Made by a program: the position numbers and the translations under genes. From contig OZ231126.1 in NCBI GenBank assembly GCA_965153355.1, forward strand, positions 43,710,001 to 43,774,000: a stretch of 64,000 nucleotides of DNA, read 5' to 3'. Below the pieces are notes generated by a model. It did no database searches. It saw only the letters and a program-made list of their open reading frames with translations, and was not told the DNA's origin. Origin of the DNA: Flaccisagitta enflata (lineage: Eukaryota). Shown piece after piece: positions 23,401-38,400 of the stretch. Position 1 is the stretch's first letter. Each line of letters begins with the position of its first letter.

Positions 23401-26400
23401 CTGGGAAATCAGTGGAAACTTAAAGGCCAAAACAAAAACGGAAGATGAAGGAATTTTGAAAAAAGGAAAATGGTCATCTTCATGATTTTTGCTCCCCCAC
23501 ATTACCTAAGTAGGGTGAAGGGATACTCCCAACTTTTGCTATGTGAAGCACCCAAATGGTGGATCTGCGTAATTGCATTGGCAGGCAGAAAGCCCCTTAC
23601 TGTACGAGAGTATGGAAAACTTCCACTCCTCCCAAGTGGCAACAACAACAACAACCCCTTAGACACAAACACTACCGCAGTACCTTAATTCGTAACAAAT
23701 GCTCGTTTTCACCCTTTTGACCTTTTCAATTCGATCATCATGGACCGACAGACGGAGGGACGGACAAAGCCTGCGAGTCCGCTACTAAGAATATCACAAG
23801 ATCACACATTGGCAAGATCACACATTGGCAAGATCAATCGGACTAATGTACCGTCAGGGCAACTTACAAAGTCGCGCGTCCGTGACTAAAAACGACTGAC
23901 AGACTACCTAAAATCAAATACATATACCGGGTCATCAGCCTGAGATGCCGGATAATGTTAAGCTTTTACTCTGAGATGCCATGTATCACGGATTTCACAC
24001 TGATTGTCTCTTAAAGAGTAAAGATTGACGTTTTTTGTATCAAAATTTCATCAAAATCGGTCAAGTAGTTTAGATTTTACATGTATTCAAGTGAAAAACA
24101 ACCTTTCTGCCACTTCTGTTTTTTGATGGGAAAATGGAGGAATGGCGTTTTTCTCCATTCCCTCATTTTGCAATACTTTGTGCCAGGGACACAAGATTAG
24201 TCCTAATTAAGAGGTAATTTGAAAAATTCATGAAACTACATCTAATTTTTTTTCATACTAGACCATTTACGTGTTCCCAAGCTCAAACTGCACTATGCTG
24301 CCACGAATGGAGGTCCTCCAGAATTCACAGTTTTGAACTTGGGAGTGTAAAAGATATATCCTCAGTATCGTTAGACAACACCTAGTCACCACCGAAGAGC
24401 TCGTGAGGCTATATGAGACGCACGCCGCGAACTAGGCCCAAGTCAAAATTAGGTGTTACTTTCCTTATCCCGTTATCCCTCAATGCGAACACGCTTCAAA
24501 ACGAAATCTGGTGGTAAATAGCTTACTTTTTGTGCTTGTTATCATGAACTATCAATTGCTTTCCAAACACGTCGAGAAGTAATTTTCCCTGAAATCGTCG
24601 CCATCTGCCACCAAGCCGACCCGAGCCGACGATGCGTTCATTTTGGTTGACGAGCATCAAATATCCATAGCACGATGTTTGGTTTACATTTTCCGGCTTG
24701 GACCGACTTTTTGATCGAGGATTTTCTTTTCCTTTTTTTTTACTCGGGACGAATTTTGACTCGATTTAGTCATCATTAAATTCTAGAATGTCTAAAAACC
24801 ATTTTCTTGAGAGAATTTTACCAAATGCGACTAATTTCGGGCTTTTCATCATTGACTGACGCTGAGTTAAATCTCTGTCGATCGCTACCTTAATGCTGTG
24901 CGAAAGTGCTGGTCCCATTTCAACCAACCGATTGAATGAGTTGAAACGGACGTTTCTACGCTATTTTCAGACTTGAACGCGAATACAGAGAGAGAGAGAG
25001 AGAGAGAGAGACAGACAGAGAGACAGAGAGACAGAGAGACAGAGAGACAGAGAGAGAGACAGAGAGAGATTCACAGCGGAGACAGAGAGAGAAGGTACTG
25101 TGGTAGTTATCAAGCAAAGATCAAGTATATGTCTAAAACCACCCAAATCAGCTACACAGTGGTAGTTATCAAGCAACGATCGAGCATATTTGACTTAGGC
25201 CAACTCGACCATCTAAAACCACCCAAATCAGCTAAACAGTGGTAGTTTTTAAGCAACGACCAAGCATATTTTACCCAGGCCACCTCGACCCAATACAACC
25301 ACCCAAATCAGCAACACTGCGGTAGTTAACAAGCAACAATCAAGCATATATAGCCCAGGCCAACCCGACTAACAATAACAACTCAAATCAGCTAGTGGTA
25401 GTTATCAAGCAACGACTAGCATATTTTACCCAGGTCACCTAGACCACATGAAACTACTCAGTGGCATTCTTCAAGGGTCGGTCTTTCTGAGATATTGTCT
25501 GACCGTCCATCAATCTGACCGTAGATTTATCCGTCGCGTCTCCCGTCTGTAATGCATGAGTTGAAGACTGTAAAAAGATGTGTGTGTGTGTGTGTGTGTG
25601 TGTGTGTGTGTGTGTGTGTGTGTGTGTGCGCGCCGCGCGCGCGTGCTCCTTTTTCTTTCTCTTTCAATTATACTTTTTCTTCTTTTGATTTCCTTTTTCT
25701 TTTTAAAACGCGGACACGTGCCTCTATAAGCCACTTTTAGTCGGTTGGTCAGTCGGTTGGTTCGTCAGTCGCTTTTCGAGGTTTTCCGCTCCTGCCCACC
25801 CGTCCTCGATTAATTCTGCCGTTTATATGTTGAGGGAAAACACTGATAAAAAAATCATTTCTTCAAAAGACGGTCATTACTATTTGATAATTGAACATGA
25901 TGGAAATGGTACAAATGTGAAGATGATAACTAAATTATACCACAAGAAATCAGAAAAGAAAGACGGAAGACAAATAAGAAACAAGGCCGGATACACGGCC
26001 ACCAGTTGCGGACGGGTGGGCAGGGGCGGAAATGCGCGTTTTCCCACTTTTTGACTCGATCACCTCTACGGACCAACCAACCAACTGACCAACCAACCGA
26101 CCGACCAACCGACCGACCGACCGACGGACAAAGCCTCTTATAGAGTTGCGTGTCCGCAACTAAAAAACAAACATAACATTTGGAGGAACAAGGCCGGATA
26201 CACGGCTTCCTGAGTCGTGTGCGGGTGGGCAGGGGCGGCGAAAAGCTAAGCGTGACCGACTGACCAACTGACCAACCAACCGACGGACAGAGCGGGTTGT
26301 AGAGTCGCCTGCACGCGATTAAAAACAGCAAGGTGACTTTGAGGCCTAAGACGACAATGTTCAACTTTACACTTTATCTCCTTTTTAGTCGCTGCCTAAG

Positions 26401-35400: not shown

Positions 35401-38400
35401 TTCTCTCTCTGTCTCCGCTCTGAATCTCTCTCTGTCTCTCTCTCTCTCTCTCTCTCTCTCTCTCTCTCTCTCTCTCTCTCTCTCTCTCTCTCTCTCTCTC
35501 TCTCTCTCTCTCTCTCTCTCTCTCTCTCTCTCTCTCTCTCTCTCTCTCTCTCCTGTATTCGCGTTCAAGTCTGAAAATAGCGTAGAAACGTCCGTTTCAA
35601 CTCATTCAATCGGTTGGTTGAAATGGGACCAGCACTTTCGCACAGCATTAAGGTAGCGATCGACAGAGATTTAACTCAGCCTCAGTCAATGATGAAAAGC
35701 CCAAAATTAGTCGCATTTGGTAAAATTCTCTCAAGAAAATGGTTTTTAGACATTCTAGAATTTAATGATGACTAAATCGAGTCAAAATTCGTCCCGAGTA
35801 AAAAAAAGGAAAAGAAAATCCTTGATCAAAAAGTCGGTCCAAGCCGGAAAATGTAAACCAAACATCGTGCTATGGATATTTGATGCTCGTCAACCAAAAT
35901 GAACGCATCGTCGGCTCGGGTCGGCTTGGTGGCAGATGGCGACGATTTCAGGGAAAATTACTTCTCGACGTGTTTGGAAAGCAATTGATAGTTCATGATA
36001 ACAAGCACAAAAAGTAAGCTATTTACCACCAGATTTCGTTTTGAAGCGTGTTCGCATTGAGGGATAACGGGATAAGGAAAGTAACACCTAATTTTGACTT
36101 GGGCCTAGTTCGCGGCGTGCGTCTCATATAGCCTCACGAGCTCTTCGGTGGTGACTAGGTGTTGTCTAACGATACTGAGGATATATCTTTTACACTCCCA
36201 AGTTCAAAACTGTGAATTCTGGAGGACCTCCATTCGTGGCAGCATAGTGCATATGAAAGTTGAAACAACATTGCCCCTACAAAAGGAGGCCAGAATTCTC
36301 CAATTTACAAAGGATGAAAGCCTTGCAAGCTTTCAATGGTGTTTACTCCGGATTGCTCACAACTATCCTTTAAAAATGATGAAAAGAAGCTTACCTGACA
36401 AAACTATCACCTTGACTGCATACCTCATAAGCATAGGGTCGGACAGTCCTATACCATAAAGTACACACAAAATATGTATGAAAGCATAGGTCATCGAGCC
36501 CTTCGGGGCCACTGCCCTGCTTCCCCTTCAACTTCCAGCACAACCTTCTTAGGCAGGGCACAGGTAGCGCTGACCATCTAATGCTTTTGAGGCATCGCGT
36601 TAGTTGAGCTCTCTCTCTCTCTCTCTCTCTCTCTCTCTCTCTCTCTCTCTCTCTCTCTCTCTCTCTCTCTCTCTCTCTCTCGCTCTCTCTCGCTCTCTAT
36701 CTCTCTCTCTCAGACACTCTCTCTCTCTCTCTCTCTCTCGCTCTCTCTCTCTCTACGCTCTCTCTCTCTCTCTCTCTCTCTCTCTCTCTCTCTCTCTCTC
36801 TCTCTCTCTCTCTCTCTCTCTCTCTCTCTCTCTCTCTCTCTCAGCACTGAGGCTACAAGCATAGAGCTAGGGATAGTCCTTGGAATAAATAACGCCAGGC
36901 GCACCGCCTTGGCCTGTGTGTTCAACCATGTTGAATAGTCGGCCCATTTTGTCGTGTCAGTCCAATTTGTTGAGTCGGCCCCTATCGTCAAGTCGGCCCC
37001 TATTGTTGTCGGCTCCTATCGCCAAGTTGGGCTTTGAAATAAAATGACGTTCTTTTAAAAAAACGTAAATAGCAAAAGGACTTTCAACTTTCAACACGCA
37101 AAAACGACTTTTTTCCTACGGCGAGAGCCGCCTTTGTTGGTAATGATAATAATAATAATAATAATAATAATAATAATAATAATAATAATAATAATAATAA
37201 TAATAATAATAATAATAATAATAATAATAATAGTAATAATAATAATAACAGAAATGAAAATAGTGATAATAACAATGATAGTAAAAATAAAAATAACAAA
37301 AATACTAATAATAATACTGATGATAATAATAATAATAATAATGATAAAAATGATAATGATAATAATGATGGTAATAATGATAATAATAAATATAATAATA
37401 ATAATAATGATAATGATAATAAGATAATAGCAATAGCATTAGGACTTTCGAATTCATCATTCAAACAGCAAACAAAATGCACGAAATAATCTCGCCCTGT
37501 TGGTTGTCCCGTATTTGATAGGTTTTCTCTAGGTTTGGCAAAGTACAGTCATGAAACGTGTTCGCATGAGTTTTTTAGCTCGAGATAAAATCGAGCCATA
37601 GGAAAAGATCCTTAGAAAAACGCTGTTATGAATCATTGGAAATATCTAGGACTCTGTTTTTTTACGAGACACGCAAATTAGCAGTAGTCGATTTTAAGAA
37701 AACGATCCAAGGAAAAGGAAATTTGACTTCACGATGGTTCTCGGCGTGTCGAATAAGGTCAGTGGTGATTCAATCTGGGTTGACCCCCCAAAGTGGCAGC
37801 ATGGTGTAACTGTTAAAAAAGAGAAAAATTTGAAGACGCTCTCTTTCATGATTTTTATTGAAAATTCTGCCATTGAGAGGAAATTAGTTTTTACTTCAAA
37901 GACTTGTAAAATCTGAACTACTTGACCGATTTTGATGAAATTTTGATACATAAAACGTCAATCTATGCTCTTCAAAGGACAATCAGTATGAAATCCGAGA
38001 TATGTGGCATCTCTGGGTAAAAGCTTAACAGAATCCGGCATCTCAGGCTGATGACCCGGTAGCCCAACGGATCGATACGGACAGGCGGATACAGCCTCTT
38101 ATTGAATCACTGGCGACCAAAGGGCTTTTTTCGTTTGGGGTGAGATATTCTCCACCGATGTAGCCTTTGGCCTGGACTTAAAAAGGTTTTAATTTGCCAT
38201 CAAGAGACGGCTTGTTTCACACTAGTTTTCTCGCATAGCTGACGCTTTAGGGGAGGTCTAAACAACCGACGAGGGATTCTGATGCTAATAATCGTTATTA
38301 TGTTGATCCCATCAACCCGAAAATTCCTCTAAGTTGAGCAACTAACAAGGCCGGATACACGGCTTCCCTAGTCCTGCGAGTGGGCAGGGGCCGTTTTTGA

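Follow-up and report, generated by a model that had tools for sequence, protein, structure and literature searches.

Background

The described systems that come closest to the locus reported here are the Transib transposons, the ProtoRAG/RAGL transposons and double Ds of maize. The locus, in the chaetognath genome assembly GCA_965153355.1 (Flaccisagitta enflata), is a transposon that has been entered, in inverted orientation, by a second copy of itself; the stretch analysed, 64,000 bp of contig OZ231126.1 from position 43,710,001 to 43,774,000, is called the window, and positions are counted from its first base. Transib elements (PMC1131882; HzTransib, PDB 6PQN) have CAC ends, target-site duplications (TSDs) of 5 bp, a CAWTG-like target and a DDE transposase, and the family described here has the same features, the transposase being encoded by a relative of the window copies. 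Elements of this family measure 5-15 kb and are filled with repeats, whereas the Transib of Diptera are 3-4 kb long; they also differ from described Transib in that the nonamer positions are without AA and the gene for the related transposase contains five introns and opens with a 171-aa leader. ProtoRAG/RAGL transposons (PMC7204232) share the CAC ends and the 5-bp duplication, and non-autonomous derivatives of them exist. In the family copies read here, however, there is no RAG1L-RAG2L pair between the ends, and the related transposase is without the Cx2Cx3GHx4C tail. Protostome RAGL ends, in the part of PMC7204232 consulted, read CACTWMCAAA and are A-rich at positions 8-10, whereas by eye the same positions read CTG here.

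Maize double Ds, a hAT element, shows the same near-identical inverted self-insertion and the same end geometry, with left and right ends in direct orientation. The present locus belongs to another superfamily, has 5-bp rather than 8-bp duplications, spans 13.5 kb and consists of copies that are 0.57% diverged, and no breakage is seen, the flanks being unrearranged. No self-nested Transib was described in the titles and abstract openings of the papers listed, from a literature coverage outside which lie most subscription journals and Repbase Reports.

A Transib element inside its sister copy

Self-BLAST paired 24289-29495 with 36251-31017 (97.0% over 5,266 columns) and 29496-31021 with 37806-36250 (94.9% over 1,566 columns). 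These inverted blocks, together with the exact ends, confirm the self-nested A-B-A'-B' layout that a preliminary description of the DNA, made from its letters alone, had proposed. The inner copy is complete, with exact CAC ends and a length of 6,754 bp, and the outer copy measures 6,757 bp once the inner copy is subtracted, matching the ~6.75 kb first given for both. The inner TSD, CATAT, stands on both sides of the inner copy, and the target site CATATG is intact within it, in the context CCCCATATGAAAG; both had been described correctly. The layout needs one adjustment, at the start of B', where position 36250 takes in the duplicated five bases and the outer element resumes at 36255 (Table 1). 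With four exact ends and two duplications, the nested pair is not due to chance.

Table 1. Features of the nested locus and of its host element, in window coordinates.
Feature	Position	Strand	Remarks
Host MITE, left part	23924..24290	none	91.8-97.8% to 14 empty copies
Outer TSD, left copy (AACTG)	24286..24290	+	
Outer element, 5' part (A)	24291..29495	+	opens with left end CACTATGCTGCCAC
18-bp minisatellite, outer copy	27505..28499	+	~55 units; gives rise to long pseudo-ORFs
Inner TSD, left copy (CATAT)	29491..29495	+	
Inner copy, inverted	29496..36249	-	right end 29496-29509, left end 36236-36249
Dispersed-repeat segment, ~216 bp	30800..31015	-	inner and outer copies only; absent from the copies at C1:106 Mb and C2:74 Mb
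Unbroken target site CATATG within inner copy	31016..31021	none	
18-bp minisatellite, inner copy	32017..32997	-	one patch with irregular units
Inner TSD, right copy (CATAT)	36250..36254	+	
Outer element, 3' part (B)	36255..37806	+	closes with right end, reverse complement CACCATGCTGCCAC
Extra T and outer TSD, right copy (AACTG)	37807..37812	+	relative to empty sites
Host MITE, right part	37813..38061	none	94-99% to empty copies

The outer copy interrupts an otherwise intact miniature inverted-repeat transposable element (MITE) of ~620 bp with inverted ends of its own. From 429 candidates 40 matches to this host were scored, 39 of them non-self, and 14 empty copies were read. The left flank directly meets the right flank in all 14, with no element between them, so the outer flanks are unrearranged and the outer copy is a simple insertion. 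Compared with the empty copies the filled site contains the element and six further bases, which none of the 14 has; they can be read as AACTG repeated, with one T added next to the right end, or as a duplication of 6 bp that contains one mismatch.

Inner and outer copies are each other's closest relatives. A comparison outside tandem repeats shows 21 differences in 3,702 columns (0.57%), which bears out the scattered substitutions and microsatellite differences reported earlier and the youth of the family; the BLAST identities given above are lower because microsatellites and the 18-bp array make up 45% of the element. A search of the 794-Mb genome found four copies of the subfamily, namely inner, outer, C1:106.47 Mb and C2:74.09 Mb. 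Polarised against the last two, seven of the 21 differences are derived in the inner copy and nine in the outer, with five unpolarised. As both copies carry derived changes, the one cannot be a faulty duplicate of the other. The end sequences of the four copies make the sister relationship plain: between inner and outer there are three differences in the left 689 bp and none in the right 370 bp, whereas the other two depart from them at 13-39 left-end and 10-11 right-end positions. Three segments (4260-4640, 5235-5450 and 6013-6103 of the inner copy) are common to the pair and absent from the other two copies, and one of them, the dispersed-repeat segment of Table 1, starts exactly at the target site of the inner insertion. 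Events took place in the order host MITE, outer insertion, presence of the shared segments, inner insertion and subsequent drift.

The element has no coding capacity. Unrelated DNA of the same genome, 256 kb in all, matches 47% of it, and the parts that this DNA does not match include the first 683 and last 371 bases. The family-specific terminal DNA comes to ~600 bp and ~370 bp, and the interior is made up of microsatellites and dispersed repeats of unrelated origin. A tblastn comparison of six transposase-like proteins of the genome with the window and six close copies found no remnant of a transposase, and this bears out the earlier view that the element is non-autonomous. The long open reading frames (ORFs) of the window that fall within the element were rejected as artefacts of the 18-bp repeat and the microsatellites.

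Other self-inverted, MITE-like elements of ~550-600 bp lie elsewhere in the window at 12216-12751, 44737-45342 and 50119-50667, and low-complexity ORFs on the plus strand flank the element at 20396-22006 (536 aa) and 38870-40876 (668 aa). The nested element may sit within an intron of a host gene.

Assignment of the family

Several features of the ends place the family. All four ends of the pair open with CAC, and left and right ends agree at 13 of their first 14 bases. The left 200 bp gave at least 40 matches in the genome and the right 200 bp at least 11; the 27 stretches examined comprise 19 two-ended and 8 one-ended copies. An exact 5-bp TSD flanks 14 of the 19 two-ended copies, one has a 6-bp duplication, two have five bases and one extra base, and two have none. 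The 5-bp TSD therefore holds across the family, and the 2-4 bp TSDs that the preliminary description had named as contrary evidence occur in none of the 19. Such short TSDs are those of CACTA/EnSpm and Chapaev elements, and these were rejected as candidates although the left end opens with CACTA. The five bases that precede 29 left ends show the preference C-A-W-T-G, also the target preference of Transib-N2_AG in the part of PMC1131882 consulted. Exact matches to CACNATGCTGCCAC number 38 (control 4), and none of the 16 unpaired stretches read is a family end.

The ends had been called similar to recombination signal sequences. A heptamer-like CAC start is indeed present; the nonamer is absent, in that inspection by eye found no A-rich block at 12 or 23 spacing, judged by a criterion (AA at positions 24-25 or 35-36) that in the relevant part of PMC1131882 comes mostly from fly and mosquito families. 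Where the family had been described as Transib or RAG-like, the HzTransib-like transposase of a relative, presented below, the lack of a nonamer and of the RAGL A-rich block, and the absence of matching ends near the RAG1-like ORFs of the genome uphold the first and not ProtoRAG/RAGL. Judged by these sequence features, the family is Transib and not RAGL, CACTA or Chapaev.

Three subfamilies were recognised, and that of the window is a mosaic of ends. Its identity to the large subfamily is 83-88% in the left 500 bp and 53-56% in the right 330 bp; the corresponding values for the third subfamily are 67-69% and 83-85%. Right ends likewise assort among members within the large subfamily. At 3 of the 19 insertions, including window position 37807 and the C1:90 Mb element, the 5-bp duplication is joined by one additional T next to an end (or the duplication is 6 bp long); this possibly reflects cleavage one base off.

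A related coding element

A relative on the minus strand at C1:90288712-90303994 (genome G000), 15,283 bp long, has ends homologous to those of the window copies. Three of its exons match HzTransib (6PQN) only, with E values of 5e-20, 2e-18 and 7e-17, and its six predicted exons, bordered by GT-AG, join into an open frame of 892 aa containing three aligned acidic motifs. Compared with the window it is 75% identical over the left end (500 bp) and 54% over the right end (330 bp). Because the right end is so dissimilar, this element is the best candidate mobiliser of the window's ends and not a matched partner; an autonomous partner with the same ends, as first postulated, was not found.

A second copy, at C2:82.52-82.53 Mb, carries a short duplication where the main exon begins, and its right end is damaged; the relatives at C3:32.87 Mb (broken) and C1:73.3 Mb showed no family ends. 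The C2:82.53 Mb element also carries, at 2951-3544 on the minus strand, a non-repetitive 198-aa ORF that lies upstream of the leader on the opposite strand; this ORF is frameshifted in the C1 copy and not conserved in the C3 relative. Four single-ORF Transib proteins of the genome are 27-29% identical to the related transposase and are without the NPGP motif discussed below. Several other Transib families of the genome have long single open frames (717-771 aa in six of the seven), some of them in near-identical pairs. A weak search for homologues longer than the transposase exon found none.

Origin of the nested pair

Our preferred account, which we hold with good though not complete confidence, is that a non-autonomous Transib inserted into a MITE and that a second copy, coming from the sister chromatid or the homologue, then inserted inverted into the first at CATAT. 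The non-autonomous element would first have entered the host MITE; a Transib transposase supplied in trans would later have excised the copy at the corresponding site of the homologue or, once replication had passed, of the sister chromatid; and the excised copy would have been pasted inverted into the nearest DNA, its twin. Donor locus, replication timing and acting transposase are deduced in this account. With four copies of the subfamily found in 794 Mb, and a probability of 8.5e-6 that a random event would strike the 6.76 kb of the outer copy, a local hop from the same locus is likely and is the best reading of the sequences. If the homologue was the donor, the 0.57% divergence may predate the jump, and the event is therefore undatable.

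Several observations weigh against this account. The outer duplication is off by one base, and the search for a coding element whose ends match gave none, the nearest candidate reaching 54% over the right 330 bp. Three copies that are 99.2-99.3% alike sit on three different chromosomes, and a lost copy elsewhere with the same three segments is a possible donor, the donor itself being unobservable. Finally, no public contig piece bridges position 29495 in the interval 29420-29870, with which four public sequencing runs were compared; 29420-29475 was skipped as repeat and one run gave no match. The remaining runs show fixed differences from the window and other flanks at the right end, and therefore come from other individuals.

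The unbridged junction and the long inverted duplication are what an assembly fold-back or a chimeric read would also leave. We consider such an artefact highly improbable: a palindrome is what a fold-back yields, and it would not supply a second full-length element whose ends are exact and which has the 5-bp duplication on both sides, each copy has derived changes of its own when judged against outgroups, and the flanks rejoin an intact host MITE. The order of the blocks is a separate matter. The orderings A+ B+ A- B+ and A+ B- A+ B+ share the same four junctions with A+ B- A- B+, so that the TSDs prove insertion and only long reads prove order. From these junctions, a crossover in which the long inverted arms pair (5.2 kb and 1.5 kb, ~99.4% alike outside tandem repeats) could produce either isomer, as could a wrong assembler path, and the irregular patch in the inner 18-bp array, which is either mutation or a local consensus error, suggests a weaker local consensus. 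The assembly is nevertheless chromosome-scale, in 9 contigs, and distinguishing substitutions that can be phased occur all along the element; we think another isomer unlikely, and its origin would still be Transib insertion with a 5-bp duplication. It is rather less probable that the inner copy came from another locus, since lost or unassembled, and struck the outer copy by chance or through target preference. Cut-and-paste donors do vanish, near-identical family copies are found on different chromosomes, and the target resembles the family preference. Against this stand the scarcity of the subfamily and the small chance of a random strike, both given above, the ubiquity of CAWTG-like sites and the three private segments that the pair has in common.

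The reading that assigns the ends to a RAG-like (RAG1L-RAG2L) transposon and not to Transib is largely excluded already, and we give it very little weight. CAC ends and 5-bp duplications are compatible with both families, and the genome holds two RAG1-family ORF pieces, at C6:12.75 Mb and at C4:79.50 Mb (broken), the first of which has amphioxus RAG1L as its best PDB match (6B40, E 2.7e-13) and a Cx2Cx3GHx4C tail. However, no family ends lie within ~20 kb on each side of either ORF, nor did the 40 kb around either yield a CAC..GTG pair bearing a 5-bp duplication (at least 11 of 15 matches). The coding elements found to have homologous ends are all Transib, and positions 8-10 are CTG as against AAA in protostome RAGL, as far as the part of PMC7204232 consulted describes them. 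A RAG2 Pfam search of the genome gave no matches; the controls likewise gave none, so it is uninformative.

Local hopping, the mode first suggested, is thus likely for this pair; in the family as a whole it is a minority mode, with two local mutual-best pairs among 30 left ends. The 40 left ends are clustered, with six pairs within 500 kb (0.97 expected, p 0.00075) and three within 100 kb (0.19 expected), and this test overstates local hopping because two of the pairs share flanks and are duplications. The end-truncated copies at C6:67.24 and C6:67.67 Mb share a flank (95% over 299 bp). A hop between them was considered and rejected, the shared flank marking a segmental or haplotype duplication.

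A predicted leader and a 2A-like motif

The frame of the C1:90.29-90.30 Mb element opens with a leader of ~160-171 aa containing three hydrophobic stretches (Kyte-Doolittle >1.8). Its third exon closes with a leucine-rich tract and S-G-L-E, and the main exon opens with N-P-G-P just before the transposase, an intron splitting the codon between the two. The core of 2A/StopGo peptides is (D/G/C/N)(V/I)ExNPGP in the part of PMC12846837 consulted; seven of the eight positions fit, with L at the V/I position, which makes the motif non-canonical.

Evidence on conservation comes from relatives of this element. The broken C3:32.87 Mb relative, 68% identical in the transposase, retains the leader, the motif and the intron position. 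Between the C1 and C3 elements, 24 of the 37 differences in the last 38 codons fall at third positions; the earlier hydrophobic block has a weaker pattern, with 19, 8 and 20 differences by codon position. A search of 1.84 billion representatives with the leader exon gave three matches. Two look like pieces of the same element, and the third is a public protein, 38% identical, that ends in the same leucine-rich, 2A-like tract.

In the parts of PMC3708506 and PMC12846837 consulted, the 2A/StopGo motifs of non-LTR (long terminal repeat) retrotransposons and viruses show the same leucine-rich tract and E-x-N-P-G-P before a mobile-element enzyme; the former places 2A-like motifs ahead of non-LTR retrotransposon enzymes and notes that some non-canonical variants are inactive. 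Compared with these, the present case involves a DNA transposase, a leader with multiple hydrophobic stretches ahead of the motif, an intron-split motif and one core mismatch. The likeness belongs to the C1:90.29-90.30 Mb coding element and not to the window copy. Term searches of the main text of PMC12846837, PMC12338488, PMC13405545 and PMC3708506 gave no mention of transposases. One family copy contains a non-LTR retrotransposon frame in which a leucine-rich tract ending in NPGP precedes an endonuclease-like part.

Possible consequences of self-nesting

The nested pair has two pairs of left and right ends in direct orientation, 24291 with 29496 and 36249 with 37806. By analogy with double Ds, such pairs could undergo sister-chromatid transposition and rearrange the flanking DNA, and the 13.5-kb nested unit could move whole. 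A second locus offers a hint of such an event and only that. At C4:37.31-37.44 Mb two copies of the sister subfamily lie 76 kb apart with a common left flank; a duplication is missing beside the right end of the second, block homology is found at the start and ~35 kb in, and no matching downstream target site was found. The arrangement resembles a tandem duplication with a transposon right end as its boundary.

A broader scheme would combine these observations, and we put it forward as a speculation that is doubtful as a whole. The transposase would be made behind a membrane-anchored leader and freed by a 2A/StopGo-like skip; ends would pair across neighbouring or nested copies; the window pair would be the first Transib counterpart of chromosome-breaking double Ds to be seen in a genome; and nesting would have yielded the mosaic ends and the C4 duplication.

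The preliminary description also read the locus as showing no target immunity. The self-insertion is real, and the wording is too strong, as this is the expected state of eukaryotic cut-and-paste elements: in the portion of PMC3952818 consulted, Sleeping Beauty and piggyBac undergo self-integration, and immunity is a described property of Tn7 and Mu. The nested pair is well supported but fairly ordinary, self-insertion being known for other cut-and-paste elements and the layout having long been familiar from maize double Ds. The predicted membrane-type leader and 2A-like motif are, on sequence evidence, the odder and more surprising lead.

Conclusions

Self-nested loci are ambiguous in assemblies, and this one is a cautionary case. 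The lone RAG1L-type sequences of the genome may interest work on RAG evolution. What the nested pair preserves is a clean natural trace of a local hop, probably from a sister chromatid, by an element related to the RAG1 ancestor, and it offers a ready substrate for asking whether direct Transib ends rearrange chromosomes as those of Ac/Ds do. If the scheme outlined above is true, leader and skip would be a dosage or localisation switch of a kind not found for DNA transposases in the literature searched. Should the 2A-like motif prove active, translational recoding would reach beyond viruses and retrotransposons to DNA transposases, and a new way of rationing nuclear transposase would suggest itself.

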